NCBI GenBank assembly: GCA_039683575.1
Contig: JBDKRC010000135.1
Coordinates: 1 to 24,257 of the forward strand
Direction of reading: 5' to 3'
Origin: Armatimonadia bacterium
GTDB taxonomy: Bacteria > Armatimonadota > Zipacnadia > Zipacnadales > UBA11051
DNA: 24,257 bases
The notes below the pieces were generated by a model. It ran no database searches. It worked only from the letters and a program-made list of their open reading frames with translations, and was not told where the DNA came from. The translations under genes and the position numbers were made by a program. Of the stretch, positions 1,946 to 23,709 are shown piece by piece. Each line of letters begins with the position of its first letter. Within the stretch, counting starts at the first letter, position 1.

Positions 1946-4211
1946 CGACGCAGCTTTCCACGCCGCAGCGGTGATGTCCCTGCACGGTGTCGAACTGCTC
2001 GAACCCCTTGGCCAGCGCCTCGGCCGTGATCTCCTCGGGCGGGAAGATGTCCTTGTCCACACCCATGTGCTTGAAGCCGTCCCCACCCATGAGCGCATAG
2101 CGCGCGCACCAGTCACAGCGCTTCTGGTCGAGGCGATGGAACTTGATGGGCTGGCCTTCGAGCGATACCGCGATCTCGTCGAGGTAGGCCTCAGGCGGGC
2201 AGGCGGTCATACAGGTGTCGCAGCCGGCGCAGGAGCCGAGGAGGCTCTGGAAGTCGAGCAGGTCATCGGCCTTCAGCGGCGCGTCGGTGATGACGCTCAC
2301 GTAGCGCATGTTCGTCCCGAAGTCCTCGGTGGCGACGAACCCGCCCTTGGTGATCGCGCCCAAACCTGCCGCGACCGCGGCGAAGCGGTTGCTGAAGGCG
2401 TTGCGCTGCGGGCCGCGGGGATTGGCCGAGATCGAGCCGGTAGCCATCAGGTCCATCGTGATCTCCGCCTTGTACCCGCGGGCACTAAGCCACTTGACCA
2501 TGGACAGGGCCTTCTCGCGCAGGATCCACTGCACGACATACTGCGCGAAGACGTAGGGGCCGACGACCTCAGCCGGCGGCTGGGCCACGCGGCGGGTGGT
2601 CGCGGCGGGGATGCGCAGGCCGAGAACTACCACTGACTGGGCGTCGGGCAGATAGTCGTACGCGTCCTTGACCTGCCGCGTCTCCTCGACCACTTCAGCC
2701 TCGAACTCCAGCCACATTTTGCCTTTGTTGGTCACGCCGAAGGTCTTCTCGCCGTCGAAGATCGGCGCCAGTTGCTTCTTCAGCTCGGCCAGACGCGCCG
2801 GCGAGGCGATGCCCACCTGATCGCAGCCGAAGGCCTCGGCGGCCTGCTTGAGCGCGCGGGTGAGGTTCTTGGGCTGCTGTAGGGCGGGGGCTCGTACCCC
2901 GCCGTCGGGGGTCTTCGCGGGGTCATCCGCCACCAGCGGCGCGCTGGTCAGGAAGGTCGCCGTCAGGGCTTCCCAGCCTTCGGGGGCCATTTTGTCCGTC
3001 ACCGCCGCCATGGCTGACTGCGGCAGGTCGGAGCAGACGACGACGCTATAGCCGAGGTCCTCGAGCTTGCGCGCGCCGAGATAGGATTCGCGGCTGGCAA
3101 AGTACGCGCCAGCGGTCCAGACCTCTCCGTGGCTGTTGCCCTTGGGAATGAGCACGCCCATCGTCACGGCACGGATTGCGTCGGGCAGGCGCTCCTGGAA
3201 GTCGAAGCTCATGGCCTGCATGGCGGCTTCATCGTGCACCAGCACGAAGTCTATGCCCGAGGCTAGCGCCTTGGCGGTCATCTCTTCCTGGACGTAGCGC
3301 GGCATCTCCCACTCGAAGCTGCCCGGCGTGCCGACTTGCTCGTCCCGGGCGTAGATCCGCTTGCGGCGCGGGGCGTTGGTGTATTCCTTGTCAAAGTAGC
3401 GCAGGTGCGGCGGCAGGCAGTGGCGCAGGCAGCTACCCATCTCGCCGCCGCGCAGGCCCTTCTCGCGGATGGTCTGGATGATCTTCTCTTCGGTCACCAC
3501 CTCCGGCTTGGGCAGGTCGAGGTCCACGCCGAAGTGCTCGCCCCACGAGCAGCGCCACAGGCTCTTCTTGGCCTTGTTGTACTTGCGGCCCTCGATCTCG
3601 ATGTACTCCAGCCCGTCCACTTCCTCAGAGAGCGCCCCCGACAGGCAGTGCTTCACACACTGGTTGCAGTTGTCGCACAGGGTGTTGCCGGGCAGGAGCG
3701 GCGTGGGATCGAGCTCGGCGGTGGTGATGATCGAGACAAAGCGGTTGCGGGGGCCGAACTCGGGGCTCATGGAGATGCCATGATAGCCGAGTTCAGTCAG
3801 GCCGGCGGCGACGGCGGAGTAGATGTGTGACATGTCCGGCGCGAAGACCGCGCTGAGGCCCTTGTAGTTGCGGTAGCGCCAGATGTTGCTGGCGGCGATG
3901 GGGATGGCCTCGTAGCCGAGATCCTCGAGGTGCCGGGCCATCTCGTAGGAGATGTGGTCGAGGTGGGTGTTCATGAGGCCCTGCACCGCATACGGGCCCA
4001 TGTCCTGCGGGTGCTTACGCCCGCCCATCTCGACGCAGCCGTCGGGATGATGCAGCGCGCAGACGACGACTGACCTGGCCTCCGGGAAGATTCCCTTCGG
4101 GCTCATCATCAGCGGCGCGTTGTCGTAACGCTCGATGTTAGCCACCCCTACCAGGTCTGCCCCCAAGCCGAAAGCGTAGCTCTTCACTAACCCGGTCAGT
4201 TGCGATTGCAT
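1911..4211 (-). CDS. Multi-module QueG/epoxyqueuosine reductase-like (reductive-dehalogenase-like fold) 4Fe-4S protein
   Basis: Repeated module pattern: G(A/C)D(L/Q)VG(V/I)A...P(E/D)AxSVVV...GY...AVAAGL...FG...R(F/Y)VS(I/V)ITxA(E/P)L. Ferredoxin-type motifs CDNCNQCVKHC and CAGCDTCMTACP follow, with distal CLRHC and CVVNCP. No signal peptide. Confidence 0.8.
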   Translation of the reverse strand: MQSQLTGLVKSYAFGLGADLVGVANIERYDNAPLMMSPKGIFPEARSVVVCALHHPDGCVEMGGRKHPQDMGPYAVQGLMNTHLDHISYEMARHLEDLGYEAIPIAASNIWRYRNYKGLSAVFAPDMSHIYSAVAAGLTELGYHGISMSPEFGPRNRFVSIITTAELDPTPLLPGNTLCDNCNQCVKHCLSGALSEEVDGLEYIEIEGRKYNKAKKSLWRCSWGEHFGVDLDLPKPEVVTEEKIIQTIREKGLRGGEMGSCLRHCLPPHLRYFDKEYTNAPRRKRIYARDEQVGTPGSFEWEMPRYVQEEMTAKALASGIDFVLVHDEAAMQAMSFDFQERLPDAIRAVTMGVLIPKGNSHGEVWTAGAYFASRESYLGARKLEDLGYSVVVCSDLPQSAMAAVTDKMAPEGWEALTATFLTSAPLVADDPAKTPDGGVRAPALQQPKNLTRALKQAAEAFGCDQVGIASPARLAELKKQLAPIFDGEKTFGVTNKGKMWLEFEAEVVEETRQVKDAYDYLPDAQSVVVLGLRIPAATTRRVAQPPAEVVGPYVFAQYVVQWILREKALSMVKWLSARGYKAEITMDLMATGSISANPRGPQRNAFSNRFAAVAAGLGAITKGGFVATEDFGTNMRYVSVITDAPLKADDLLDFQSLLGSCAGCDTCMTACPPEAYLDEIAVSLEGQPIKFHRLDQKRCDWCARYALMGGDGFKHMGVDKDIFPPEEITAEALAKGFEQFDTVQGHHRCGVESCVVNCPLSRQSRD
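2877..2906. repeat. REP family A copy in-frame inside the 766-aa gene (encodes DGGVRAPALQ)
   Basis: ctgtagggcgggggctcgtaccccgccgtc is the exact 30/30 reverse complement of 160-189. Confidence 0.9.
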
Positions 4212-4257
4212 GGCGATTCATGGTCTCCTGATGGTATCAAGGCTTGATCTTGCGGCG

Positions 4258-4266
4258 AGTGTAGCA
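4258..4266 (-). promoter_or_regulatory. Putative extended -10 (TGcTACACT) for the 766-aa gene
   Basis: Minus strand TGCTACACT lies about 47 bp upstream of the ATG, in the intergenic region shared with the divergent AraC gene. No good -35, which is compatible with an activator-dependent promoter. Confidence 0.35.
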
Positions 4267-4365
4267 CAGCGCCGCTACGGCCAGAAGGCACGGGTTGCTG
4301 TTTCTTATTGGACAAAATGCTGGTAAAGACGCAGGTATGGCGCTCCCAAGGCCGAAACAGCCGGC

Positions 4366-5226
4366 ATGCGTACTGATGAAGCCAGGCCTGCCGAGTTGCC
4401 CCTGCCCCCTGCCGGGCTGGCGGGGCAGCTCTCGTTCTCGTTCTACTGGGCCCGCGAGTATGATCCCGAGCCCGGCTGGACCTTCATCCCGCCCAAGCGC
4501 CGGCCCTACGCAACGCTGTGGCTGATCCGCGACGGCGAGCTTGTGGTTGACACCGGGTCAGAGACCGGCACTTGCGGCCCGGGGACGCTGGTAGCCTGGC
4601 CGCCGGGGGCCGTCCGCGAGGCCGAGAATCGGCTGGACCATCCAGCACTTCTCTACACGATATCGTTCAACCTGCAGGTCTGGGGCGAATTGGATTTCTT
4701 CCGGCTGTACCGCGTGCCGCCATTTCACCGGGTAGCGGACTTCGAGGCTTTCGACGAGCCGTGCGCGGCGCTGGTGAAGGAGCTGACCACCTACGACGCT
4801 GTCACGCTCGTGGCGGAGGGCTGGGCGCGGGTACTGGTGGGGAGGTGGCTGGGGGAGTTGGAGCAGACCAGGGCCTTGCAGCCCGCGGCGGGCGTGGATG
4901 AGCGCCTGTCGGAGGTGCTGGCGGCGATTGAGGGGGATCTGGCCGGGGATTGGAGTCTGCAGCGGCTCGCGGAGATGATGCGCCTGAGCAAGGTGCGGAT
5001 GCGGGAACTCTTCGTGCGGGCGGTGGGCCTGCCGCCGCTGCGGTATATCACGCTGCGGCGCATTGACCACGCGCGGGGGTTGCTGCGGGATACCGACCTG
5101 ACGTCGGCGGAAGTCGCGCGGCGGTGCGGGTATGAGGATCCGGGGTATTTCAGCAGGATGTTCCATCGGATAGCCGGGATGCAGCCGTCGGTCTACCGGG
5201 AGCAGGCGCGGTTCCGGCGGGACTGA
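4366..5226 (+). CDS. AraC/XylS family transcriptional regulator (N-terminal cupin)
   Basis: C-terminal AraC double HTH: WSLQRLAEMMRLSKVRMRELF...LLRDTDLTSAEVARRCGYEDPGYFSRMFHRIAGMQPSVYR. Cupin-like N-terminus (LWLIRDGELVV...GPGTLVAWPPG). Confidence 0.93.
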   Translation: MRTDEARPAELPLPPAGLAGQLSFSFYWAREYDPEPGWTFIPPKRRPYATLWLIRDGELVVDTGSETGTCGPGTLVAWPPGAVREAENRLDHPALLYTISFNLQVWGELDFFRLYRVPPFHRVADFEAFDEPCAALVKELTTYDAVTLVAEGWARVLVGRWLGELEQTRALQPAAGVDERLSEVLAAIEGDLAGDWSLQRLAEMMRLSKVRMRELFVRAVGLPPLRYITLRRIDHARGLLRDTDLTSAEVARRCGYEDPGYFSRMFHRIAGMQPSVYREQARFRRD

Positions 5227-5231
5227 CGCGG

Positions 5232-7070
5232 CTACTCAGACTGCCGCAGTACCTGTAGAAAGGCCTCGCCGTACCTGGCCAGTTTGACCTCTCCCACACC
5301 CTTGACCTCCAGCATCTCCTCCGGCGTGCGTGGCTGCCGCTGCGCCATGTCGCGGAGGGTGGCATCGGCGAAGACCTGGAACGCGGGGACGCGCTTCTGT
5401 CGCGCCAGTTCCAGCCGCAGCGCCCGGAGACGTTCAAAGAGCGCTTCCGACCCAGCGCGCGGTCTCGCCCCCGTGGGCGCGTTGGCGACGTCTACGTCGC
5501 GGGGTACCCTTGTCCGCGTGGCGGCAGCAGGTTCACTCTTCGCCCTCTGCAACACCACCTCGCGCTCGCCTCGCAAGACCTCCGCACCCTGCTGGTTCAG
5601 CCGGAAGGTGCGAAAGCCGTCCTCCCTGACATCCACGAGTTCCTGTGCAATGAGTTGTGTGAACACCGACCGCCACTGCTGCTCGGAGAGATCGCGGCCT
5701 GCGCCGTAGCTCCCTAGGCCAGCATGGCCGTTTTCCAGCACCTTGCGGTCACGGCTGCCCCTGAGTACGTTCGTCAGGTGCGCTGAGCCGAACATCTGGC
5801 CGGTCTCGAAGATGCACAGGAGGGCCTTCTGGGCCACCGTGGTCGCGGGCCAGTCTTCCTGCTCGCTGCCGTCGTTGCCGAGACAGGTATCACAGTTGCC
5901 GCACTGGTCAGGGAGGTTTTCGCCGAAGTAGCGCAAGAGCAGCCGGCGGCGGCATTCGGCGGTCTCGCAGAAGCGCGCCATGGCCTGCAGCTTCTTCTTC
6001 TCGACCTTCTGAAACTCCGGTTCCGCCTCGCCGCTTTCAATCAGCTTACGCATCAGGACGACGTCACCCACGCCGAAGGTCATCCAGGCGGTGGCCGGGA
6101 GGCCGTCGCGCCCCGCGCGCCCGGTCTGCTGGTGGTACTCCTCAATGCTGCGCGGCATGTCCATGTGGGCCACGAAGCGCACGTCCGGCTTGTCGATCCC
6201 CATCCCGAAGGCAATTGTAGCGGCGACGATTGCTCCCGGCTCGTCGAGGAAGCGCTGCTGGTTCACCCGGCGCTCGGCGTCATCCATCCCGGCGTGGTAG
6301 GGAATGGCGTTGAAGCCGCACTCGCGCAGGTACTCGGCAGTGGCGTCCACAGACTTGCGGGTGAGACGATACACGATGCCTGAGGCGCCGGGCTCCTGTC
6401 CGCGCAGAAAACCGACGAGTTGGCGCTTCCAGTTCGTTTTGGGGGTCACGAGATAGCGGATGTTGGGGCGGTCAAACCCACCCACGAACATGCCCTTTTC
6501 CGGCAACTCCAGCCGCTTGAGGATCTCCGCGCGGGTTTGCAGGTCGGCGGTGGCAGTGAGCGCCAGGCGCGGCACACCGGGGTAGCGCTCCTTGAGCACG
6601 TGCAATTGCAGGTATTCGGGGCGGAAGTTGTGGCCCCACTGGGATACGCAGTGGGCCTCGTCGATAGCAAAGAGGGCCAGTTCGACCTGATCCAGCGCCT
6701 TAAGGAAGCCCTCCATCATGAGGCGCTCGGGCGAGACATAGAGCAGATCAAGCTCCCGCGCCATCATCTTGTGCTTGACGTCCCACGCCTCGGCGTTCGT
6801 CAGCATCGAGTTCAGGTGAGCCGCCCGCACGCCCAGACTTTGCAGGCGCGCTACCTGGTCCTGCATGAGGGCGATCAGTGGGGAGACCACAATGCCGAGG
6901 CCGGGACGCACGATGGCCGGAATCTGGTAGCAGAGCGATTTGCCACTGCCGGTGGGCATGAGCAGGAGGGCGTCCTTGCCCGCGAGGACGTGGTCAATAA
7001 CCGGCTCCTGAAGGCCGCGGAAGCTCTGATAGCCGAAGACGTTGCGGAGAATGTCGAGAGGTTGCTGCAA
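5232..7070 (-). CDS. recQ: ATP-dependent DNA helicase RecQ
   Basis: Motifs MPTGSGKSLCYQIPA, VSPLIALMQDQV, IDEAHCVSQWGHNFRPEY, ATIAFGMGIDKPDVRFV and GRAGRDG. Zn/RQC region CRRRLLLRYFGE...CGNCDTC and a C-terminal HRDC. Start placed at TTG 7070 (LQQPLDILRNVFGY), because the ORF extension to 7205 runs through a hairpin and a REPIN. Confidence 0.95.
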   Translation of the reverse strand: MQQPLDILRNVFGYQSFRGLQEPVIDHVLAGKDALLLMPTGSGKSLCYQIPAIVRPGLGIVVSPLIALMQDQVARLQSLGVRAAHLNSMLTNAEAWDVKHKMMARELDLLYVSPERLMMEGFLKALDQVELALFAIDEAHCVSQWGHNFRPEYLQLHVLKERYPGVPRLALTATADLQTRAEILKRLELPEKGMFVGGFDRPNIRYLVTPKTNWKRQLVGFLRGQEPGASGIVYRLTRKSVDATAEYLRECGFNAIPYHAGMDDAERRVNQQRFLDEPGAIVAATIAFGMGIDKPDVRFVAHMDMPRSIEEYHQQTGRAGRDGLPATAWMTFGVGDVVLMRKLIESGEAEPEFQKVEKKKLQAMARFCETAECRRRLLLRYFGENLPDQCGNCDTCLGNDGSEQEDWPATTVAQKALLCIFETGQMFGSAHLTNVLRGSRDRKVLENGHAGLGSYGAGRDLSEQQWRSVFTQLIAQELVDVREDGFRTFRLNQQGAEVLRGEREVVLQRAKSEPAAATRTRVPRDVDVANAPTGARPRAGSEALFERLRALRLELARQKRVPAFQVFADATLRDMAQRQPRTPEEMLEVKGVGEVKLARYGEAFLQVLRQSE

Positions 7071-7083
7071 AACGGACCCCGTG

Positions 7084-7124
7084 AAAAACATGAGCATCCA
7101 CCCGAAGAAGAGGTGGATGCTCAT
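7084..7124 (-). terminator. Rho-independent terminator-like hairpin between the oxidoreductase gene and recQ
   Basis: Perfect 13-bp stem atgagcatccacc (7090-7102) / ggtggatgctcat (7112-7124), followed on the minus strand by GTTTTT. Confidence 0.6.
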
Positions 7125-7136
7125 TATACTCTTTAG

Positions 7137-7208
7137 CGCGTGGTAGGCACACTCCGTGTGCCGGGATTCGCTCGATGATTCCGGCACACGGAGTGTGCCT
7201 ACCACGCG
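7137..7208. repeat. REPIN-like element, family B (CGCGTGGTAGGCACACTCCGTGTGCCGG, inverted pair)
   Basis: Perfect 28-bp inverted repeat, 7137-7164 / 7181-7208. Each arm has GTAG and an internal GGCACAC-tcc-GTGTGCC hairpin. A sister copy is at 21544-21626. Confidence 0.9.
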
Positions 7209-7219
7209 GACAGGCGGCG

Positions 7220-8395: not shown

Positions 8396-8406
8396 GGGTT
8401 CATTCC

Positions 8407-9558
8407 TTACGTGATCTTGAACTGCGTGAGTCTGAGATTGAGGTCGTCGATGCTTAGGAACTCGACCTCAAGGTCATCGTATCTGCGTCGGAAACTGGGG
8501 GCTACATCGGGTCCGACAACCCAGTTCAATCCTCCCGGATAGACCTTTCTGAAAGCGAACAGGCTTTGGGGCTCGAAAGTCGCCACTGATCGCTTGCATT
8601 CCATGGCGATGAGGGGAGCCTGAGGGTGAGCCAGGACGAAGTCCACTTCATGGCCACGCTTGTCGCGCCAGTAGTTCACCTGCGGATAGGCGATGCGGGC
8701 ATTTAGCTCGTTGAGAACGTAGTGCTCCCAGAGCAGGCCAAAGTCCTCGGGACGCAGTTGGTTCCAGCCGCGGAAGTGACGAACGAAGCCAGTGTCAAAG
8801 GCGTATACCTTTGGAGCCGATGTTATCTCCGTGGCGCGGTATGTCGAGTACGGCCGGACCAGGTGCACCACCTGGGTAGTCTCAAGCACTTCGAGGTAGT
8901 TGCGGCCCGTGGTGTGGCTGATGCTCGCCTGCTTTGCCAACCTGTTCAGCGAGAGAATCCCGCCGCTTTGCACGAAGAGCAGTTGTAGCAGTTGGCGGAA
9001 ACCATCCCGCCGCTCCAGCCGGAACAACTCCTGCACATCGCGCGCCCAGTAGGAATCTAGCCATTGCTCGTAGTCGAGAGCCGGCAAGTCCTTGCTCAGG
9101 AAGAAGGGGGGAAGCCCGCCCAGGCGAAGCCGGTGATCGAGATCGGTCTGCTCGAAGTCCCGGAGGTCCTGGCTCATCATCGGCGTAAGCCAGACCTCGG
9201 CTTTGCGGCCGGTGAGCGTATCACGGAATTTCCTCGAAGCGCCCAGGGTAGACGAACCGGTAGCCAGGACTTTGACGCCAGGATAGTGGTCAGCCGCGAT
9301 CTTCAGCAGTTCCGAGGGGTTATCAAGGCGTTGGACTTCATCCAGGACAACCCGCTTGCCCACCAAACCGGCTAGGAAGCCCTCGGGGTCTGCCAGCGCC
9401 TGCCTGACCCGTGGCAGTTCACAGTCAAGGTACTCAGTGTCAGCAAGACTCTGGCACAGAACGGTCTTGCCCACACGACGCACGCCGTATAGCCAGACAA
9501 CGTTACGCCGTTGCCAAGCCTCTTCGACCCGGTTGATCCAGTATTTTCTGTACCACAT
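8407..9558 (-). CDS. AAA_14-type ATPase with C-terminal DUF4143 (wHTH plus PD-(D/E)XK-like) region
   Basis: Walker A GVRRVGKT, Walker B VVLDEVQ, ATGSS, LTGR, GGLP, PKVYAFDTG and YWRDKRGHEVDFVL...IAMECK. Codon usage is visibly more A/T-rich than in neighbouring genes. Confidence 0.9.
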   Translation of the reverse strand: MWYRKYWINRVEEAWQRRNVVWLYGVRRVGKTVLCQSLADTEYLDCELPRVRQALADPEGFLAGLVGKRVVLDEVQRLDNPSELLKIAADHYPGVKVLATGSSTLGASRKFRDTLTGRKAEVWLTPMMSQDLRDFEQTDLDHRLRLGGLPPFFLSKDLPALDYEQWLDSYWARDVQELFRLERRDGFRQLLQLLFVQSGGILSLNRLAKQASISHTTGRNYLEVLETTQVVHLVRPYSTYRATEITSAPKVYAFDTGFVRHFRGWNQLRPEDFGLLWEHYVLNELNARIAYPQVNYWRDKRGHEVDFVLAHPQAPLIAMECKRSVATFEPQSLFAFRKVYPGGLNWVVGPDVAPSFRRRYDDLEVEFLSIDDLNLRLTQFKIT

Positions 9559-9611
9559 GCAATCAGTATTGCAAATAGTGCTACTTTTTGCAATACTAAT
9601 TGCAATTAGTA
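9558..9611. promoter_or_regulatory. AT-rich nested palindrome: putative operator and leaderless promoter of the ATPase gene
   Basis: 18-bp inverted repeat at 9558-9575 / 9587-9604 (1 mismatch). Perfect 18-bp palindrome TACTAATTGCAATTAGTA at 9594-9611. The minus strand reads TTGCAA-N17-AATACT-N6-ATG. Confidence 0.7.
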
Positions 9612-9615
9612 AGAA

Positions 9616-11769: not shown

Positions 11770-11798
11770 TTCTCACCGGCTTTCGGCCGTGGTATAAT
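11770..11798 (+). promoter_or_regulatory. Putative sigma70 promoter of iscU
   Basis: TTCTCA (11770-11775)-N17-TATAAT (11793-11798), with a TGn extension. Confidence 0.6.
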
Positions 11799-11856
11799 CG
11801 CGTTTGTGAGGGTGGGTAGATCACGGGCAGGCCCCACTGCCCGTCTGAAGGGAACG

Positions 11857-12315
11857 ATGTCTGTGTATTCAGAGAAAGTACTGGAGCATTTCCGCGAGCC
11901 GCGTAATGTCGGCGAGCTTGAAGACGCCGATGCCGTCGGCGATGTTGGCAACCCCAAGTGCGGCGACATGATGCGCATCACGATGAAGATCGACCCGGAG
12001 ACCGAGAAGATCGAGGACATCCGGTTCAAGACCTTCGGTTGCGGCGCCGCTATTGCCGTCAGTTCGATGCTCACCGAGCTAGTCAAGGGCAAGACGCTTG
12101 AAGAGGCCCTGGCCGTGGACAATAAGACGGTAGTGGACGAACTGGGCGGCCTGCCGCCGGTCAAGATGCACTGCTCGGTTTTGGGCGAGCAGGGCATTGT
12201 CGCGGCCTTGCAGGACTATTACAGCAAGCACCCCGAAAAGACGCCCCCGGCCGAACTGGTCGAAAAGGCCAAGTTCCTCGAAGGCGTCGATCCGCACGCC
12301 GACGAGCATGCATAG
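11857..12315 (+). CDS. iscU: Fe-S cluster assembly scaffold IscU/NifU-N
   Basis: YSEKVLEHFREPRNVG, GNPKCGD, FKTFGCGAAIA and LPPVKMHCSVL, with all three conserved Cys. ATG at 11857. Confidence 0.95.
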   Translation: MSVYSEKVLEHFREPRNVGELEDADAVGDVGNPKCGDMMRITMKIDPETEKIEDIRFKTFGCGAAIAVSSMLTELVKGKTLEEALAVDNKTVVDELGGLPPVKMHCSVLGEQGIVAALQDYYSKHPEKTPPAELVEKAKFLEGVDPHADEHA

Positions 12316-12335
12316 ACCCTGGAAGTCCCAAATAC

Positions 12336-12372
12336 AACAAGCCCCTGCAAACGCAGGGGCTTGTTTCGTTTT
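12336..12372 (+). terminator. Rho-independent terminator after iscU
   Basis: 13-bp stem aacaagcccctgc / gcaggggcttgtt, 4-nt loop, followed by tcgtttt. Confidence 0.8.
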
Positions 12373-12410
12373 GCGGCAGGTGTCCATGGGAGCAGCGGGA
12401 ATATGTCACG

Positions 12411-14000
12411 ATGCGCCTGAGCTACACTCTCCTGCCCTTGTGTCTGGCACTTCTGTCCCCCTGCCTCCACGCCGACACACTCACTCCGCCGCTGAGCCCC
12501 GGTCAGGAGCCCCAGTGGCACTTCGCCGCCGGCGCCTGGCGCTTCACCGCCGAGGGCACGCTTGAGCAGACCAATGCGTCCCGCCGCTCTGCCGCGATCC
12601 TCCGCAGCCCGGCCTACGGCAACCTGCGCCTCAGCGCGGACTTCAGAATCGCCCCCGTCGGCAGTGGCGTCCGCGCCGCCGCCGTCATCTTTGGGGCTAC
12701 GGGAACGCTCTCGTACCACTGGCTCCACCTCGATACGAAGTTCCACCAGCTCATCCTCACCCGCTCAACTCCGAAGAACACGTGGATCGAGGTCGCCCGC
12801 CGCCGCTGTCCCACGCTCACCGACGACACCTGGCACAATCTGGTCGTCGAGGCCCGTGACGGTGCGGTGAAGGTTCTGTTGGACGGTCGGGAAGCATTGC
12901 AGGCCCCCCTTGCCGAGCCTGCTGCCGGATACGTCGGCTTCGGCACCAGCCAGGGACAGGTTGCCTTCCGCAACCTGAAGCTCGAGGGAGACGTGGTCAA
13001 GATGGCACAACTCAAGGACGAACAGCCGCCGTTCCGCATCATCTCCCACGGGGAAGCTGCGGGGACCTACCAGGCCTTTCCCGATGCCTGCCGGCTGAAG
13101 AATGGCGACATCATGGCGGTCTTCTACGGCGGCTATGGCCATGTGTCGCTGCCGAATGACGAGTGGCCCAGGGGTGGGCGCGTCTGCACCGTCCGCTCCT
13201 CGGACGAGGGGCGCACCTGGACCACCCCAGCGGTCCTCTACGATGACCCGCTGGACAACCGCGACCCGCATATCGCCCAACTCAGTGACGGCACGCTGGT
13301 GTGCAGCTTCTTCAACTACTGGCGCGAGGACGGCAAGACGCGGTACCACTGCCTGCTGGCGCACTCCACGGATGGCGGGAAGACGTGGGAGCAGCAGGGA
13401 CAGGTGGTAACGCCGATTGGTTGGGCGGTGTCAGCCCCCGTACGCGAGATGCCCGACGGGACGCTCATACTGGGGGTCTACGGCGAGGGGCCACATGGCT
13501 CGTTCGGTGGCGTGATCCGCTCCACCGACCACGGCAAGACCTGGAGCGCCCCCATCCCCATCGGCGAAGAAGCCCGCCTGCCCCTCGATGCGGAGACTGA
13601 CGTCATCTTGCTCAAGGACAAGACGCTCTACGCCGCCCTGCGCAGCAGCAAGGTCAACATGCACTACGCCACCAGCCCCGACCTCGGCCTGACGTGGTCG
13701 GCGGTCAAGGACATCGGCTTCAAGGCCCACGCGCCGCATTTCACGCGCCTGAGCACCGGCGAGATACTCATGACCCACCGCATACCCGAGACCGCCCTGC
13801 ACGTCAGCCGCGACGAAGCCCAGACGTGGGAGGGGCCGTATGTGCTCGATACGGTAGGCGGGGCCTACCCGGCGACGGTTGAACTGAAGGATGGGACGAT
13901 TCTGGGGATCTACTACGAGGAGGGCGAGGGTAGCGCGATTCGCGCCCTGCGCTTCAGGCTGAAGGCCGACGGGATCGAGCCGCTGAGCCTGGATAAGTAA
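12411..14000 (+). CDS. Secreted sialidase-family (BNR/Asp-box beta-propeller) protein with an N-terminal ConA-like/DUF1080-like domain
   Basis: Signal peptide. Five Asp-boxes (SSDEGRTW, STDGGKTW, STDHGKTW, SPDLGLTW, SRDEAQTW). Beta-sandwich N-domain with WHNLVVEARDGAVKVLLDG...GYVGFG...FRNLKL. Confidence 0.85.
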   Translation: MRLSYTLLPLCLALLSPCLHADTLTPPLSPGQEPQWHFAAGAWRFTAEGTLEQTNASRRSAAILRSPAYGNLRLSADFRIAPVGSGVRAAAVIFGATGTLSYHWLHLDTKFHQLILTRSTPKNTWIEVARRRCPTLTDDTWHNLVVEARDGAVKVLLDGREALQAPLAEPAAGYVGFGTSQGQVAFRNLKLEGDVVKMAQLKDEQPPFRIISHGEAAGTYQAFPDACRLKNGDIMAVFYGGYGHVSLPNDEWPRGGRVCTVRSSDEGRTWTTPAVLYDDPLDNRDPHIAQLSDGTLVCSFFNYWREDGKTRYHCLLAHSTDGGKTWEQQGQVVTPIGWAVSAPVREMPDGTLILGVYGEGPHGSFGGVIRSTDHGKTWSAPIPIGEEARLPLDAETDVILLKDKTLYAALRSSKVNMHYATSPDLGLTWSAVKDIGFKAHAPHFTRLSTGEILMTHRIPETALHVSRDEAQTWEGPYVLDTVGGAYPATVELKDGTILGIYYEEGEGSAIRALRFRLKADGIEPLSLDK

Positions 14001-16458
14001 CGAGAACCAACAGCGAAACCAATCCGAGCGCCATCAGCATCAGGCCGACGCGCCACGGACGCGGATGGTAGCTGAAGATCACTTCGTGGCAGCCTGCCCT
14101 CACCGCCACCGCCTTCAGGCCATAGTTGGCACGCAGCAGCCGCGCGGGCAGGCCATCGACAGTAACCTCCCACCCTGGATACCACGCATCCGCCAGCACC
14201 GCCAGCGCCGGGCGGAAGGCCTCTACGGTCACTCTGACGCGATAGGTATCTTCCCCAACCACCGAGGCCGTCCCGGCCGGGCCCGGTTGCGTCAGCCCCT
14301 CGACTGCCCCCTCGACCACAGCCTGCCCGTAGGGCTGAAAGTCCCGCTGCTTGATGATCTGCATCTGGGCCTCGGCGTTTGGGGCGCTGATCGCCTGCCC
14401 GACCAGCCACGCGCGCGGGTGAGCGGGTTCATAGCGCCAGACGCTCGTTTCGCCCTCCCACACCCGCTTCAGCGCCGGGTCCTGCACCTTCCCCGGCGTC
14501 ACGATGAACTGCGCCCCCACGAGCGCGTGGAAGCGCTTCATGCGCTCCAGTGGCGTCCCTACGCGCTCGATGGTCTCCTCGCTGGTATTCACCTGTCCGG
14601 TGATCGCCTGCACCATGTATGCCTGGTACTGGTTCCACATCTGCAGCGTCGCCGGGGTGACAATCCCCTGCTTGTAGCCGTCGCTATAGCGCACGTCAAA
14701 GAGCGTGCCATAGGCGGGCCGTAGCTGCGAGCGGTAGCCCTCGGTATACATCCACTCCCCGCCGGGACGCTGTTCACTGGCAGGCACAGCGGCAACCAGT
14801 TCCCGCGGCACGCTCACCATCCGCCCCGAGCCAATCACCCGCGCGCTCTCCGGCGGCTGCACGTAGTAGGCGCGACCGACCACGGGGTTGGTAACCTGCC
14901 AAAAGTGCCAAAGCGGGCCCAGCAGCGCGACCACGAGCAGCATCAGGAGCACTCTCTGCAAGGAGTTCCGCCCGGGCCTCTGCGCGGCCACCCATACACA
15001 GACCACGACGAGCGCCGCCACCAGCACCACCGGCTGCCACCCGATGAGCGAGTTGTACATCGCCGCCGCCGTGTTCTTCAGCGGCAGGGCCAGCCCCGGG
15101 TGCCCCGGCAGGACCAGGCTGCCCCCCTCCGCGCCGAAGGTCATCCACAGCGAGAACAGCGCAAATATCACCAGTCCCGCCAGTCCGAGCGCCGCCTTCG
15201 TCGCCACCTGCCGCTGCCGTTCGGTCGCCTGCGGCAGCCACTGCACCGCCATCGACACCAGCAGCCCCACTGCGAACATGGGCAGCAGCGTCCAGCGCCC
15301 CATGGCCCGGAAGCCGCCCACGAGAGGCAGTCGCGCCAGCACCGCATACACCGGGTTCCCGGCCCACACCAGCGACGCGCCGACGACCAAGAGCACCAGG
15401 GCGAACAGCCATCCACGGCGCCGCCAGCCAACGATCAGCCCGACCAGTCCCAACAGCAGCGGCGCGCCACCCACATACGCGGAGGTCTCATGGAAGAACG
15501 CCTCCCCGCCGATGACATTGGCGCGAACCGTTCCAAAGATGTCCGGCAGCAGCACCCGCGCCACATCGCGCAGCTCAAAGGCATAGCTCTGCATCCAGCT
15601 CAACTGGTCAATCTGCGTCCCAAGCTCCCGCTTGATCTCGCGAGCCAGTTCAAGCGTTGGCAGGACCTGTGGGGCGATGAGAAGACCGGCAACGAGGGCG
15701 GCGACCAGAATCCCAACCAGGACTGGCCGCGCGCGGGGATTCTTCGCTTCGCTCAGAATGACAGGCTGGCGCCCGCCCCCACCCTTTGCATCCTGCCTCC
15801 CCCCATTGTCATCCTGAGGAGCGCCGTTTGCGACGAAGGATCTCTCCCCCACCAGCACCCACACCGCCAGCGTGAACATGATCATCAGGAAGATCTGCGG
15901 GTGGCTGGACAGAAACGCCAGCGCCACCTCCAGCCCGAGCAGCCCCCAGCAGCGCCAGCTTCCCCTCCGCAGCGCCGTCTGCAGCACGCCCAGCGCGAGC
16001 GGGAGGTGCGCCGCAGCCGTCACGAAGTTGTAGTGGATCAAGTGCCCCGCCTGATAGCCGCTGAACGCGTATACTCCCGCGCCGATCACCGCCGCCGCCC
16101 GTCCCATCCCCAGGTTCCGCGCCACCCACATGAAGCCCGCCAGCGCCAGCGCCAGGTGCAGCCAGTAGCAGCAGTGCAGCGCCGTCATCCACGGCAGGAG
16201 GCGGAAGACCACGAGATGTATCGGATACAGCCCACCCGACTGCCCCGTCGCCAGGGCCGGCAGCCCGCAGTACTGCCGCGCGTCCCACAGATACAGGTCG
16301 CCCGCCCGCAGCGTCTCGCCCAGCGCCCGGTATTGGGGGTATACAAACAACTGCGCATCATCGCGCACCAGCGGCCGCCCAAGCAGGAGCGTCTGCCACA
16401 TGAACGCCAGCGGCAGCAGCACGACAATCGCCCCAAGCAGCAGTTTGCGCCCTCGCAT
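13954..16458 (-). CDS. YfhO-family polytopic membrane protein (putative GT-C glycosyltransferase)
   Basis: Many TM helices. LWDARQYCGLP, GGLYP, YAFSG and the C-terminal LADAWYPGWEVTVDG...RANYGLKAVAVRAGCHEVIFSYHP signature. Start is ATG 16458 (GTG 16542 is possible). Confidence 0.85.
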   Translation of the reverse strand: MRGRKLLLGAIVVLLPLAFMWQTLLLGRPLVRDDAQLFVYPQYRALGETLRAGDLYLWDARQYCGLPALATGQSGGLYPIHLVVFRLLPWMTALHCCYWLHLALALAGFMWVARNLGMGRAAAVIGAGVYAFSGYQAGHLIHYNFVTAAAHLPLALGVLQTALRRGSWRCWGLLGLEVALAFLSSHPQIFLMIMFTLAVWVLVGERSFVANGAPQDDNGGRQDAKGGGGRQPVILSEAKNPRARPVLVGILVAALVAGLLIAPQVLPTLELAREIKRELGTQIDQLSWMQSYAFELRDVARVLLPDIFGTVRANVIGGEAFFHETSAYVGGAPLLLGLVGLIVGWRRRGWLFALVLLVVGASLVWAGNPVYAVLARLPLVGGFRAMGRWTLLPMFAVGLLVSMAVQWLPQATERQRQVATKAALGLAGLVIFALFSLWMTFGAEGGSLVLPGHPGLALPLKNTAAAMYNSLIGWQPVVLVAALVVVCVWVAAQRPGRNSLQRVLLMLLVVALLGPLWHFWQVTNPVVGRAYYVQPPESARVIGSGRMVSVPRELVAAVPASEQRPGGEWMYTEGYRSQLRPAYGTLFDVRYSDGYKQGIVTPATLQMWNQYQAYMVQAITGQVNTSEETIERVGTPLERMKRFHALVGAQFIVTPGKVQDPALKRVWEGETSVWRYEPAHPRAWLVGQAISAPNAEAQMQIIKQRDFQPYGQAVVEGAVEGLTQPGPAGTASVVGEDTYRVRVTVEAFRPALAVLADAWYPGWEVTVDGLPARLLRANYGLKAVAVRAGCHEVIFSYHPRPWRVGLMLMALGLVSLLVLVTYPGSAARSRRPSA
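15738..15844. repeat. Family C palindromic repeat pair in-frame inside the YfhO-like gene (encodes ...RSFVANGAPQDD...VILSEAKNP)
   Basis: 15738-15763 (gattcttcgcttcgctcagaatgaca) is identical (26/26) to 22977-23002. 15807-15844 (tgtcatcctgaggagcgccgtttgcgacgaaggatctc) is a variant arm in the opposite orientation. Confidence 0.88.
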
Positions 16459-16562
16459 GGTCAGGTAATTCGCGTTTTCGCGCTCCCAATCCTCTTCGCG
16501 CGAAGGTACGCGCCCTCCGGCCGTCGAAGTGGCCTGCTTCACGTCAGTCTCGGAGGATGGTT

Positions 16563-17612
16563 ATGGCCTATCGTGTCGCCTTCGTGGGTACCGGCGGGAT
16601 CTCCCGCACCCACGCCAAGTACTACGTAGACAACCCGGCCACGGACATCGTGGCCGCCTGCGATATAGACCCCGAAAAGCTCAGGGGCTTTCGCGAGCAG
16701 TTCGACGTCCCGGCCGGCTATGAGGATTACCGTGAACTGCTTGAGCGCGAGAAGCCGGATATCGTCAGCATCTGCACATGGCATGGCACCCACTCGGAGA
16801 TCGCCGTCGCGGCGGCCGAGGCGGGTGTGAAGGGCATTCTGTCCGAGAAACCCATGGGCCGGGACTTGCGCGAGGCCAGGGCCATGGTGGAGGCCGCAGA
16901 GGCCAACGGCGCAAAGCTCGCCATCCACCACCAGTTGCGTTTCGCCGGGTCGTACTGCGCCGCCCGGCAGGCCGTCGCTGAGGGCAAGATCGGCAGCCCC
17001 CTGTGCCTCTTCTGGCGCACTGGTGGCGGGCTGCTCAACAACGGCTGCCACGGGATCGACCTCTTCCGCTGGCTGACCGGCGAACCCGAGTGGACCGCAG
17101 TCATGGGCCAGGTAGAGCGCCTGAGCAACCGCTACGAGCGCGGCCTGCCCGCCGAGGACAAGGCCGCCGGGATCATCCGCTTCGAGGGCGGGCATGAGCT
17201 GGTGCTGGAAGTGGACATGCTGGGCGAGGACCGCGCGGAGACAACGTACCGGCTCTTCGGACCCGAGGGCATAGTCGAGATCAACGTCCGCACCGCCACT
17301 TTGCTCTCTACCGACCAGAAGGGTCGCCAGGAACTGCCCCCCATCCCGCAGCCCACGCCACTTGAGGAACTCATCACGTGGATCGAGGGCGGCCCCGAGC
17401 ACCGCGACTCCGGCCGCCGCTCCCTCAAGACCGAAGAGATCATGATGGCGATCTATGAATCCTCCCGCCTCCGCGCGTACATCCACCCGCCCTTCGACAA
17501 GCTGGAAAGCCCGCTGTTCGAGATGGTAGCCGACGGCACGTTGGCCGTGGACGAGCCCGCCTACGACATCCGCAGCGAAGCGGCGCTGAAGTATGAGATG
17601 GACCGGGGGTAA
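16563..17612 (+). CDS. Gfo/Idh/MocA family oxidoreductase
   Basis: VAFVGTGGIS, PDIVSICT, ILSEKPM and GGGLLNNGCHGIDL. GGAGGA RBS precedes ATG 16563. Confidence 0.92.
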   Translation: MAYRVAFVGTGGISRTHAKYYVDNPATDIVAACDIDPEKLRGFREQFDVPAGYEDYRELLEREKPDIVSICTWHGTHSEIAVAAAEAGVKGILSEKPMGRDLREARAMVEAAEANGAKLAIHHQLRFAGSYCAARQAVAEGKIGSPLCLFWRTGGGLLNNGCHGIDLFRWLTGEPEWTAVMGQVERLSNRYERGLPAEDKAAGIIRFEGGHELVLEVDMLGEDRAETTYRLFGPEGIVEINVRTATLLSTDQKGRQELPPIPQPTPLEELITWIEGGPEHRDSGRRSLKTEEIMMAIYESSRLRAYIHPPFDKLESPLFEMVADGTLAVDEPAYDIRSEAALKYEMDRG

Positions 17613-17639
17613 TCGCGCCGTTCGCCGGGACCGCCGACA

Positions 17640-17834
17640 GAAATGGGGGCTGACCCCAATTTCCATCTCCAGGCCCCACCACCCAATCTGGTCGCACGGG
17701 AAATTGGGGTCTGTACCCATTTCTGGTCTTGTGATACCGCCGCCACCGGAAAACGGGTACAGACACCATATTCGCATGACAGTTAGTGGATAATGTCAGG
17801 CCAGGTTGCGAAAATGGTGTCAGTCCCCATTTTC
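17640..17834. repeat. Family E: four 24-25-bp imperfect palindromes in alternating orientation (BIME/REP-like cluster)
   Basis: gaaatgggggctgaccccaatttc (17640-63), gaaattggggtctgtacccatttc (17700-23), gaaaacgggtacagacaccatattc (17749-73) and gaaaatggtgtcagtccccattttc (17810-34). Spacers are 36, 25 and 36 bp. Confidence 0.8.
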
Positions 17835-17869
17835 CTCGTTTGCCGCTAGTCCAAAAGGAATTCTGACCA

Positions 17870-19090
17870 ATGCCCAACCCAATCAACATCACCCTCGTCG
17901 GCACCAATAACTTCGCGGGCAGCCACCTCGGCTCCATCCGTCGTATGGAGGAGGAGGGCCTTGCGAAGCAGGTCGGCGCCGTGATCCGCCGCCCGGACGT
18001 GTATGCGGACAAGGTAGCCGAGTTCCAGGCACGCGGCATCACTGTCTACAACTCGTATGCCGAGATGCTCGAAAGGGAGCAAGGCCGCACCCAACTCGTG
18101 TCCCTGCCCGTGGCCATTCCCGACCATGCCGAGACCACCATCGCCGCGCTCGAAGCCGGCTACGATGTCCTGCTCGAGAAGCCCCCGGCACCTGTGATCC
18201 AGCAGATTGACGCGATGCTCGAGGCCGAGAAGCGCACCGGGCATTTCTGCTGCGTGGGCTTTCAGAACCAGTCCAAGTGCACCGTCCGCGCCATCAAGCG
18301 CGCCCTGGGCGAGGGCAGGTTCGGCGACCTGCAGCGCATCAACGTCATGGCCGAGTGGATCCGCCCCGACAGCTATTACGAGCGCAACGCCTGGGCGGGC
18401 AAGGTCATGTTCGAGGGCAAGTACTGCCTCGACGGCCCGACCTGCAATGCCCTCGCGCATTATCTCTTCAATGCCCTCTACTGGGCCTCACCCGAATGGG
18501 GCAAGGCCGCCGAGCCCACCTCCGTGCGCGGCGAACTCTACCACGCCCATCCCATCGACAGCGTCGATACCAGCGCCCTCGCCGTGCACACCGACACCGG
18601 CGTGGATATCACGTACCTGACCACCCTCGCCGGCTGGTCGAATCGCGGCCCCTTCAGCCGCCTCATCGGCACGAAGGCCACCTGCGACTGGGCCATCAGC
18701 GGCGATGCCACCGTCACATACGCCGACGGCCGCCAGGAGGTCATCGCCGACGACGGCAGCCGCGAACATGACGAGGTCTTCCGCAACTGCATCAAGTACC
18801 TGCAGGGCGAGGCCGAGGAACTGAACTGCCCGCTCGCGATGACCCGCCCGTACGTGCTGGCGCTCAATGGCGCCTGGGAATCATCCGGCGGCCCGCGTGA
18901 CATCCCGGCCGAATCCGTCACCCGCGAGCCGAAGGACAACTCGATCTTCACGGGCCTCAACGGCATCCCCGAGCTACTCGACGAGTGCTACAATGCGGGC
19001 AAGCTCTACAGCGACGCAGGAGCACCGTGGGCGGTCGCAACCAGGCCCTTCGACCTGAAGGGCTACAGAGAGTTCGCTATGGCGTTCTGA
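17870..19090 (+). CDS. Gfo/Idh/MocA family oxidoreductase
   Basis: ITLVGTNNFA, VLLEKPP, VGFQ, YYERNAWAGK and DGPTCNALAHYLFN. AAGGA RBS. Confidence 0.9.
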   Translation: MPNPINITLVGTNNFAGSHLGSIRRMEEEGLAKQVGAVIRRPDVYADKVAEFQARGITVYNSYAEMLEREQGRTQLVSLPVAIPDHAETTIAALEAGYDVLLEKPPAPVIQQIDAMLEAEKRTGHFCCVGFQNQSKCTVRAIKRALGEGRFGDLQRINVMAEWIRPDSYYERNAWAGKVMFEGKYCLDGPTCNALAHYLFNALYWASPEWGKAAEPTSVRGELYHAHPIDSVDTSALAVHTDTGVDITYLTTLAGWSNRGPFSRLIGTKATCDWAISGDATVTYADGRQEVIADDGSREHDEVFRNCIKYLQGEAEELNCPLAMTRPYVLALNGAWESSGGPRDIPAESVTREPKDNSIFTGLNGIPELLDECYNAGKLYSDAGAPWAVATRPFDLKGYREFAMAF

Positions 19091-19099
19091 ACACTGGTC

Positions 19100-19128
19100 T
19101 TTACAAAGTATCATCTTGGTTGTATCAT
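19100..19128 (+). promoter_or_regulatory. Putative sigma70 promoter of the HTH gene
   Basis: TTTACA (19100-05)-N17-TATCAT (19123-28) in an AT-rich patch. GTATCAT is repeated at 19108 and 19122. Confidence 0.55.
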
Positions 19129-19156
19129 GGTTTCATACCAAAGGAGGTATGGGCCA

Positions 19157-19873
19157 ATGAATCTGTCAGTTCTGACACCCAAGGAAGTCGCAGATGCACT
19201 CAAAGTCGACGAAGAAGTCATATTGGAGCTCATGGACCGTGGCGAACTGCGTGGGTTCCAAGCTGGCCACCTGTGGCGTACAACCCAGCAGTTTGTTGAG
19301 CAGTTCATCCAAGATCAAACCAAGCCCGAACCACAACATGTCAAAGCTAATCAGTCTGAGTCGAGGCCTGAGCAGGCTGACGAGAAGATGGGAGACCTAC
19401 GCTCAGGCTGGGACCGCATCGACGGCGGCTTCAGGTTCGGTTGGCCGAACATGGACGAGGAAGTGTTCGACGTGGCTTTCGCCCGCATTGTGCGGCGGAA
19501 AGGACGTAACATCCCTCTGGTCATAGGAATTGGCGACCGTCGCGCCGCCGGACGAGTGCGCCGCCGGGCGGTCGTGTTCTGGGGTGTCCACCCCGGAACC
19601 AAGAGCCCTCTGGTCGAGTTTGCTGGGGCGAACGACTTTGACGACACGAAGCTGATGGCCTCCGTTATCAAGGTTGACGGGCGAAGGCACCTGGCACCCG
19701 CTGATGACCTTCCCGAGCAGTACGTCGACGCCGACCTTCCCATCGGCGTATACAACCACGTCGTTACCGGCCCGCGCGCGTGGGACAGCCAGGCCGTACT
19801 AGCACGCGAGGACCAACTTGAGGTCATGGCGACGCACGCCCTGATCAGAGCCCAGCAGAAGGGACTTCTTTGA
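19157..19873 (+). CDS. Excisionase-like (HTH_17/MerR-like) DNA-binding domain fused to an unrecognised C-terminal domain
   Basis: AAGGAGGT RBS 8 nt before ATG 19157. VLTPKEVADALKVDEEVILELMDRGELRGFQAGHLWRT matches the Xis-like wHTH pattern. About 170 aa of globular C-terminus is not recognised. Confidence 0.75.
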   Translation: MNLSVLTPKEVADALKVDEEVILELMDRGELRGFQAGHLWRTTQQFVEQFIQDQTKPEPQHVKANQSESRPEQADEKMGDLRSGWDRIDGGFRFGWPNMDEEVFDVAFARIVRRKGRNIPLVIGIGDRRAAGRVRRRAVVFWGVHPGTKSPLVEFAGANDFDDTKLMASVIKVDGRRHLAPADDLPEQYVDADLPIGVYNHVVTGPRAWDSQAVLAREDQLEVMATHALIRAQQKGLL

Positions 19874-19887
19874 TGCCAGCGCTGAAG

Positions 19888-19922
19888 CGCGCGGGAGGCG
19901 CACTCTGTGTGCTTCCCGCGCG
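19888..19922 (+). repeat. GC-rich hairpin, probably a collapsed derivative of a family B REPIN
   Basis: 16-bp stem cgcgcgggaggcgcac-tct-gtgtgcttcccgcgcg with two G-U pairs. Its core differs from ggcacactccgtgtgcc at 3 of 17 positions. Confidence 0.5.
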
Positions 19923-19931
19923 AAGGTGACC

Positions 19932-21476
19932 ATGAACGACCTCAACGACCTCTGGACTCGCGCCGCCGACCTCTACGGCGACCGCACCGCCGTCATCTTC
20001 GAGGATCAGCGCTACACTTACGGCGACCTCGACGCCCTGATCCGCGCCTTCGCCGCGAGCCTGCCCTCCCTCGGCGTCGGGCCCGGCGACCGCGTGGCGC
20101 TTGTCTTGCCCAACTGCCTGCACTCCATCGTGTGCTATCTCGGCATCATCCGCGCCGGAGCCATCGCGCTGCCCCTCAACATCCGCCTGAAGCCCTCCGA
20201 GATGCGGTTCATGTTCGAGGACGCCGCGCCAAAGGCCGTCATCGCCCACCACACCCTTCGCGAGCAGGTCAACGAGGCGCTCGACGGCCTCCCCTCTATC
20301 CCCCGCCTCGGGGTTGGGTTTGAGGATGAGCAATACACCTCCATTGACCGCGTAGTGCGGGCGTCTCGCCCGCATCCGGCCGAGGATGCCACCAACCCAC
20401 AGCCTGCGGGCGAGACGCCCGCACTACGCGAGGACGACACCGCCGCCATCATCTACACATCCGGCACCACTGGCCTGCCCAAGGGCGCGATGATCACGCA
20501 CGGAAACGTGCTCTTCAACATAACCGCCACCATCGCGGGCCACGGCTTCCGCGCCGACGACATCCATCTGCTCATCGTCCCGCTCTTTCATGTCACGGGC
20601 CTGAACACCATCATGCCGACGGCGTTCTACCAGGGCGCGACGCTCGTGGTCTCAGGCGATCCCAACCCCACAAACGTAGTCGCTCTCATCGAGCGCCATA
20701 GCTGCACCACGGTCTTCACCGTCCCCACGACCGCCATCCTGCTGGTGCAGACACCCGGCATTGCCGACCACCCGCTCCCGAGCCTGCGCCTGATCGCCTA
20801 TTCCGGCGCACCCATGCCCGTCCGCGCCATCTCCCGCCTGCGCGAGCTATTCCCGGACAAGCTGCTTCACAACTTCTTTGGGCTCACCGAGACCACGTCA
20901 TGCACCTCGGTCCTCCCCAGCGACCAGGCCCTCCTGCGCCCCGAGTCCATCGGCCGTCTAGTCCCGGGCCTGCAGGCCAGGATCGTGGATGAGGAGGGCA
21001 ACGCACTCGCTCCCGGCCTCGTCGGCGAACTACTCATCAAGGGCCCCAGCATCGTCAAGGGCTACTACAACCGCCCTGAAGCCACCGCCGAGGCCATCGT
21101 GGACGGCTGGCTGCACACGGGCGACACCGCCTTCATCGACCCCGAGGGCTTCATCTTCCTGCAGGGCCGCAAGAAGGAGATGCTCATCGTCGCGGGAGAG
21201 AATGTCTACCCCGTCGAGGTTGAGAACGTCCTCACCCGCCACCCCGCCGTCGCCGAAGCCGCTGTCATTGGCGAGCCCCACCCGATCTTCGGCGAGGTCG
21301 TCAAGGCTGTGGTAGTCCTCCGCGCCGGCGAAGAGCCAAACCCGCGCGACCTCAAGCGCTACTGCGCCGAGCAACTCGCCAGCTACAAGGTGCCGCAGAC
21401 CTTCGAGTTCCGCGACGCCCTACCCCGCAACCCGTCGGGCAAGGTCGTGAAGCGCGCACTCAAAGACGCCCCTTGA
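19932..21476 (+). CDS. Long-chain acyl-CoA synthetase / class I adenylate-forming enzyme
   Basis: IYTSGTTGLPKG, PLFHVTG, FGLTET, GWLHTGD, GRKKEMLIVAGENVYPVEVE and PRNPSGKV. Start is ATG 19932 (GTG 19926 is possible). Confidence 0.93.
   Translation: MNDLNDLWTRAADLYGDRTAVIFEDQRYTYGDLDALIRAFAASLPSLGVGPGDRVALVLPNCLHSIVCYLGIIRAGAIALPLNIRLKPSEMRFMFEDAAPKAVIAHHTLREQVNEALDGLPSIPRLGVGFEDEQYTSIDRVVRASRPHPAEDATNPQPAGETPALREDDTAAIIYTSGTTGLPKGAMITHGNVLFNITATIAGHGFRADDIHLLIVPLFHVTGLNTIMPTAFYQGATLVVSGDPNPTNVVALIERHSCTTVFTVPTTAILLVQTPGIADHPLPSLRLIAYSGAPMPVRAISRLRELFPDKLLHNFFGLTETTSCTSVLPSDQALLRPESIGRLVPGLQARIVDEEGNALAPGLVGELLIKGPSIVKGYYNRPEATAEAIVDGWLHTGDTAFIDPEGFIFLQGRKKEMLIVAGENVYPVEVENVLTRHPAVAEAAVIGEPHPIFGEVVKAVVVLRAGEEPNPRDLKRYCAEQLASYKVPQTFEFRDALPRNPSGKVVKRALKDAP
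20349..20430. repeat. Family D REPIN (GTAGTGCGGGCGTCTCGCCCGCA pair) in-frame in the acyl-CoA synthetase
   Basis: Perfect 26-bp inverted repeat at 20349-20374 / 20405-20430. Each arm has GTAG and a TGCGGGCG-tct-CGCCCGCA hairpin. Encodes RVVRASRPH...AGETPALR. Confidence 0.9.
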
Positions 21477-22888: not shown

Positions 22889-22933
22889 TCTCTCATCCTG
22901 CCCATCTGCCGTTATCCTGCTCCCGAAATTGGT

Positions 22934-23692: not shown

Positions 23693-23709
23693 TGAAAGGT
23701 CCTAACGCC

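Follow-up and report, generated by a model that had tools for sequence, protein, structure and literature searches.

The closest precedent for the elements described here comes from Di Nocera, De Gregorio and Rocco (2013), who reported 70 intragenic entries for three GTAG families of repetitive extragenic palindromes (REPs) in Opitutus terrae and proposed that these lie in linkers and loops (PMC3733652). In its accessible sections, that paper mentions a single gene, Xanthomonas recB, in which different REPs occupy the same site, and does not decide between targeting and filtering of REPs, nor whether the copies inside genes do any harm. Rickettsia palindromic elements (RPEs) are a second precedent, being palindromes translated in frame in working proteins according to the available parts of PMC3733652 and PMC3184786; further background was taken from the accessible portions of PMC3116915, PMC3686654, PMC11893778 and bioRxiv 10.1101/2024.10.14.618302. 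Here we describe three palindromic elements in a 24,257-nucleotide (nt) stretch of DNA from an Armatimonadia bacterium (contig JBDKRC010000135.1; hereafter the window). Analysis of the genome of the window and of its relatives indicated that several REP families are read in frame within intact genes, both here and in congeners, at variable loops and as lineage-specific insertions, as the first-pass annotation of the window had suggested. We consider it probable that these mobile hairpins persist in frame because they landed in the few loops that tolerate extra residues.

Each of the three elements lies within an uninterrupted open reading frame (ORF). Family A, a GTAG-type single REP (2877–2906, minus strand), is read as (D)GGVRAPALQ at residues ~436–445 of a 766-amino-acid (aa) tandem QueG-like 4Fe-4S protein (1911–4211, minus strand). 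Family C forms a TGTC/CGTC-type pair of two subfamilies with their tags inward (15735–15844, minus strand), corresponding to residues 233–269 of an 862-aa YfhO-like membrane protein (13954–16542, minus strand); the Pfam YfhO match is weak and below the cut-off, and PF09586 is precomputed on 29/29 homologues. Family D is an 82-nt GTAG-type inverted doublet (20349–20430, plus strand) made of perfect 26-nt copies at 20349–20374 and 20405–20430, read as RVVRASRP...AGETPALR before the P-loop of a 516-aa AMP-binding acyl-CoA ligase (19926–21476, plus strand). The exact non-coding twins noticed earlier for A and C were recovered. The A insert is identical over 30/30 nt to 160–189, within a pair of non-coding A copies at 82–189 (plus strand), and 15735–15763 is identical over 29/29 nt to 22934–22962, one arm of an intergenic C doublet (22934–23002, unstranded). 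All three families are multicopy, with 150 (A), 85 (C) and 156 (D) genome copies at up to 3 mismatches. The labels REP and REPIN given to them at first hold in part. Consensus sequences and folds of A and D showed a 20–40-nt hairpin with a terminal GTAG, and D forms the inverted doublet and long hairpin of a REPIN, with 26-bp perfect arms. A is a singlet rather than a doublet. C combines two of its subfamilies, paired tag to tag, and differs in this from its intergenic twin. The C consensus carries the CGTC/TGTC tag and the AT pair at the stem base of the CGTC class, as far as this class is described in the accessible text of PMC3733652. Among the peptides suggested for proteomics, TPDGGVR and QPVILSEAK are unique tryptic peptides, as is the further peptide ASRPHPAEDATNPQPAGETPALR; AGETPALR is not tryptic here and is present in 9 proteins. 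Close homologues of two of the hosts are labelled Armatimonadia by their source records.

De novo k-mer analysis of the genome of the window (G000; 352 contigs, 96% complete) yielded dozens of repeat families, from which tandem, coding, CRISPR-like and insertion sequence (IS)-like repeats were left out and 19 palindromic groups were kept. Genes were called with our own hexamer model (4,782 genes, 87% coding), and an element was scored as internal when at least 40 coding codons lay on either side of it. The G000 scan with the 19 groups returned 2,367 units in 1,253 elements, and none in the reversed genome. Most elements were intergenic (1,060), including 146/190 for family A and 100/134 for family D; 91 were internal, 35 lay near gene termini and 5 were doubtful. 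A further 62 overlapped the stop codon of a gene, and 16 were found in C-terminal tails. The internal elements occupied 85 of the 4,782 genes (1.8%), and their density was 79-fold lower than between genes (16.8 vs 1,324 per Mb). The internal share differed between families (25/190 for A, 23/134 for D, 1/128 for C), and at least 17 of the 19 groups had an internal copy. With a median length of 27 nt, internal elements are shorter than RPEs, given as ~105–146 bp in the accessible literature, and reside in a genome with transposase genes; RPEs and the present elements are alike in being palindromes in frame within working proteins, translation being deduced here from sequence. Single units made up 58/91 elements inside genes vs 458/1,060 between genes, and families were mixed in 9/33 multi-unit elements inside genes vs 285/602 between them.

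Two congeners, G002 and G003, were sampled in the same way. Internal elements numbered 78/366 in 1.97 of ~6.4 Mb of G002, from contigs chosen in earlier match lists because they were long or held known genes and thus not a random sample, and 17/66 in 0.40 of ~5.9 Mb of G003. Depletion inside genes was 32-fold in each of the two samples. Three cases among about 19 genes had looked dense in the first-pass annotation. The binomial probability of 3/18 is indeed low (P = 0.004), but only 2 of 118 non-overlapping 24-kb windows of G000 reach three hosts and 87 contain none, so that the window is a tail case of the genome-wide distribution.

The Fe-S protein provided the most detailed history of a single site. 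An internal repeat (E = 8e-18) and alignments placed the A insert directly before the second QueG-like Fe-S module, in a linker of residues ~427–448. Homologues 94–95% identical to the host lack A and are 3 residues shorter, and contigs from three studies, possibly the same data as these proteins, cross the site with 9 nt fewer. The A insertion is therefore recent, with a net gain of 3 aa and a loss of about six native linker residues. Other occupants of this linker are one GTAG doublet in G002, another in G003, a third in protein P0006 and a probable fourth in P0012, giving four or five REP families among 20 homologues. Among 20 close homologues, five carry exact 7-residue REP peptides in the linker, and the rest of the 14,861 residues contain none; the peptide library included families derived from G002 and G003, which makes those two matches partly circular. 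The family in the G002 linker has 192 exact motif matches in the G002 genome vs 2 in a control. A quick tree nested A among empty rows, placed P0012 as sister to three empty rows and put three families in one clade. We also considered concerted change of one ancestral family and rejected it, since A is abundant in G002 (121 matches) and G003 (131), yet their Fe-S linkers hold other families. Of 451 homologues of this host, the named ones belong mostly to Armatimonadota and Lentisphaerae, and all Pfam matches are sub-threshold.

In the YfhO-like protein, the C insert occupies a hydrophilic stretch flanked by two hydrophobic segments and is shared with homologues 89% and 96% identical to the host. 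Two further families, one of them with a short-looped sister, were found in the same loop in separate clades, giving three families in total. Exact REP peptides occurred in this loop in 6/30 rows, and otherwise only in two C-terminal tails. In the acyl-CoA ligase, D sits ahead of the YTSGTTG P-loop, in a segment of 34 residues vs 21–23 in most outgroups; its DNA hairpin has a folding energy of -43.5 kcal/mol. The predicted structure showed a predicted local distance difference test (pLDDT) score below 50 at residues 148–158. A helix predicted at residues 138–145 overlaps the first D arm, so that D does not lie purely in a loop. The G003 orthologue carries an unrelated palindrome at the D site. 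Four close relatives retain D, one of them with 15 extra residues after it. In two of these four the insert differs at 10/34 and 9/34 residues vs 25/480 and 20/480 elsewhere, and thus diverges about six times faster than its host. A nine-member ligase clade has long loops throughout, with differing content. Reuse by several families was not detected at the peptide level in the ligase, exact 7-mers being confined to the D clade (5/45); other families at this site are recognised from the G003 DNA and from weaker matches.

Empty alleles indicated that these sites were already variable. Mean identity was 0.31 vs 0.68 at the empty Fe-S site and 0.29 vs 0.69 at the empty ligase site, both among the least conserved 1–2% of windows; the empty YfhO site was only at the 14th percentile of window conservation. 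Comparison of orthologues agreed with the inserts being lineage-specific, as shown by the absence of A from the 94–95% identical Fe-S sisters and by the unrelated ligase palindrome of G003; like RPEs, these are lineage-specific in-frame insertions in conserved genes.

Reuse of insertion sites was quantified with 883 reciprocal best pairs between G000 and G002, which included 19 G000 and 51 G002 host genes, 7 of them hosts in both genomes. The Fe-S gene, chosen on purpose, was excluded, leaving 6 shared hosts where a length-weighted null expected 1.9 (P = 0.008). In four of the six the elements were at the same site, all with different families, and in the other two at different sites; only 0.29 shared sites were expected (P = 2e-4). 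Among 145 pairs with G003, three sites coincided vs 0.11 expected, two with different families and one with the same family, which may have been inherited. A sulfatase gene carries different doublets at one position in G000 and G002. The site is empty in G003, which is closer to G002 than G000 is, in the further relative G001 (90% complete) and in four outgroups, and this points to two independent insertions. At site C22, one family is common to G002 and G003 and another is present in G000. No conserved peptide was found at the shared sites. A capture-recapture estimate, rough and assuming equal sites, gave ~190–230 usable sites in ~880 shared genes.

Coinciding sites could also arise by turnover, if one ancient insertion opened the site and later families cut into the resident hairpin or were swapped with it by strand transfer of a REP-associated tyrosine transposase (RAYT); shared sites would then reflect the targeting of old REPs instead of independent filtering. 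Long non-matching inserts of G001 at C250 and C186 point to an old insertion followed by turnover, and the degenerate G001 insert at the Fe-S site, the differing long loops of the ligase clade, the 15 residues following D and the mixing of families in 9/33 multi-unit internal elements are of the kind expected from it. Biochemically, the accessible account of PMC3333891 describes in vitro cleavage by E. coli TnpA-REP at CT on either side of a REP, with joining of the pieces. The Fe-S, sulfatase and YfhO sites tell a different story, the A insert being nested among empty sisters, the sulfatase site being empty in G003 and G001 and the YfhO gains having short-looped sisters. Mixed elements are, moreover, rarer inside genes than between them. 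We therefore regard turnover as a rather unlikely general explanation. As a separate observation, neither a Y1 transposase nor a family A match was found in G001, whose long degenerate inserts at several of the shared sites are possibly a record of REP decay after loss of the enzyme.

Frame was kept in all elements whose flanks were collinear in one partner protein, 19/19 in G000 and 59/59 in G002, with 0/78 frame-breaking cases; elements closer than 330 nt to a contig end were left out. Of the frames of intergenic elements, 62% were stop-free; multiplying by one third, we estimate that only about one in five random insertions would leave the frame unharmed. Compared with other stop-free frames, those used in G000 were enriched in small or polar residues (0.73 vs 0.63 in the null) and depleted in Arg (0.11 vs 0.16), no simulated value being as extreme. 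G002 showed the same preference, aromatic residues being depleted in both genomes, and the preference held for single units alone. Family D used its five open frames unevenly (11/0/5/1/14 times; P = 7e-5). Taken together, these signals imply probable translation of the inserts and their screening by selection. A common target phase was judged an unlikely cause of the frame bias, as the tag phase appeared to differ between families when frames were read. Weaker selection on the hosts was rejected as well: an identity gap of 65% vs 71% shrank to 70.6% vs 71.6% once gaps and inserts were removed (59 vs 806 pairs, P = 0.17), so that host conservation is about that of other genes. Among genes of at least 300 aa, 80% identity was reached by 6/56 hosts vs 122/502 others, no more than a trend (P = 0.095 for the medians).

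Apparent insertions might have arisen from misassembly at repeats or from the decay of pseudogenes. G000 consists of 352 contigs, assemblies of near-identical strains are interrupted at these repeats, and no listed contig spans the whole 19.9-kb stretch. The same peptides are present in other records (P0001; P0126–P0129; P0170–P0171), no frame-breaking case was seen and host conservation is normal, which makes an artefact extremely improbable. The first-pass annotation had gone further and proposed that this lineage systematically recruits palindromes as coding linkers. Hairpins would then be kept at domain boundaries for ribosome pausing, mRNA stabilisation or a tuned linker, with any family able to serve. 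The repeated refilling of the same sites by different hairpins would be expected of such recruitment, as would the persistence of C and D inserts in relatives down to 89–94% identity and the location of 21–26% of sampled congener elements inside genes. Set against it are the strong depletion inside genes, with C internal in just 1/128 elements, the close relatives that lack inserts, the lack of a conserved peptide, the rapid change of the D hairpin region in two of four relatives and the excess of short single units in genes, which is the opposite of selection for stable hairpins. Systematic recruitment is not supported by this comparison, and we consider adaptive retention very unlikely. A combined version, in which ~200 intragenic sites in ~880 shared genes are standing slots refilled by RAYTs with the active family, swapping linker peptides and kept as a useful hairpin or longer linker at a domain boundary, seems quite unlikely.

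Retention in tolerant loops can be laid out as a sequence of steps. A and D probably owe their spread to RAYT-type Y1 transposases, and C probably to a different enzyme that cuts hairpins. Coding DNA is likely struck widely, after which selection would purge frame-breaking insertions and those encoding Arg-rich or aromatic peptides; the depletion and the frame bias themselves are observed. With few tolerant sites available, a given loop would be hit independently by unrelated families in related species; this recurrence is observed. An old insert could in turn become the target of the next insertion, and insert peptides would act as near-neutral spacers.

The search for mobilising enzymes gave a mixed answer. 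As in REPIN–RAYT and TnpA-REP systems, the elements comprise GTAG-tagged hairpins and inverted doublets and there are Y1 transposases flanked by their own family; the accessible literature on those systems treats extragenic space. The RAYT or GIY-YIG genes flanked by the same repeats that the first-pass annotation proposed looking for were not found for A, C or D in G000. A scan of 46 further Y1 loci, which include one from G000, revealed one flanked by A-type copies (L352, in the relative G007); D occurred only as lone copies near two. A Y1 transposase domain at G000:C102:9064–9342 lies in a 357-codon frame that continues into an unrelated C-terminal region. A cognate A enzyme was sought at a three-copy cluster in the relative G024 and rejected, no transposase-like ORF being present on inspection. 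All three family A pattern matches of G024 lie in this cluster (L359, G024:C5:72637–73178), an intergenic tandem array flanked by two similar genes that look secreted. Family C has a TGTC-AT...AT hairpin, the layout of the CGTC class, in common with the NTS/SRM repeats of Ssn GIY-YIG nucleases, as given in the available text of PMC11893778. It departs from the published SRM pattern, with 0/222 units matching at 0–1 mismatches and 79/222 at 2. The 96% complete G000 yielded no small GIY-YIG gene flanked by C; its two PF01541 matches fall in 665- and 177-aa frames. According to the accessible parts of PMC3116915, PMC3333891 and PMC3686654, REPs can stay abundant where the cognate RAYT is missing. 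According to the alignments, each of the three window sites lacks some residues of the native linker, which would fit cut-and-join at CT as in E. coli TnpA-REP, or later trimming.

Several observations weigh against filtering by tolerant loops. Fe-S stretches near residues 328, 352 and 395 are as variable as the linker and hold no REP peptide; variability alone is therefore no predictor of the site. G001, in which no Y1 transposase was found, holds long non-matching inserts at three shared sites (Fe-S, C250, C186), a pattern that fits one old insertion with turnover. Extra insertions per gene exceed chance (6 vs 1.6; 14 vs 3.8), so genes differ. None of the seven G000 Y1 transposase genes (0/7) is flanked by A, C or D, each adjoining other repeat families. 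In the other two relatives of the ligase, only 1–2/34 loop residues differ, and the YfhO insert does not outpace its host in one of two relatives (5/46 vs 82/781 differences). The frame bias was not significant in G003 (n = 17). Gene calls come from our own hexamer model, and translation is inferred from selection signatures.

Other repeats and genes of the window were recorded. A cluster of AATGGGGAC-type repeats lies at 17638–17833, and the same group flanks a Y1 transposase on G000 contig C237. Family B forms intergenic doublets at 7137–7208 and 21544–21626, and a degenerate B-like copy lies at 19881–19915, directly upstream of the ligase. An AT-rich 29-nt inverted repeat with a 3-nt gap (9551–9611), outside the scanned REP groups, separates GH-like and AAA/DUF4143 genes. 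Dihydropteroate synthase with a ~140-residue N-terminal extension, 5-formyl-tetrahydrofolate cyclo-ligase and folB follow at 21692–24081, a C doublet separating the first two.

In-frame REPs of several families are already known from Opitutus and Rickettsia, and the phenomenon is not new in kind. As far as PMC3733652 is accessible, its GTAG and CGTC REPs resemble those described here in that several families lie in ORFs, as singles and dimers, with similar peptides. The differences are a new phylum ('Armatimon' is absent from the accessible text) and the measurement here of site reuse, frame bias and the lack of frame-breaking copies against null models, none of which is measured in the accessible sections of that paper. 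A literature search aimed at measured same-site reuse and at REPs in Armatimonadota turned up nothing beyond the recB remark, in a literature from which most subscription papers were missing. The present work extends the phenomenon to another phylum and to a large set of families, and measures site reuse and filtering at the peptide level. New function is not demonstrated by these data. Peptides shared between proteins, such as AGETPALR, should be annotated with caution because they are repeat-derived. Collectively, the data mark loops that accept foreign peptides and make filtering vs targeting of REPs testable. With many families, empty and filled alleles and loops that were struck repeatedly, the genus represents a natural linker-scanning experiment.

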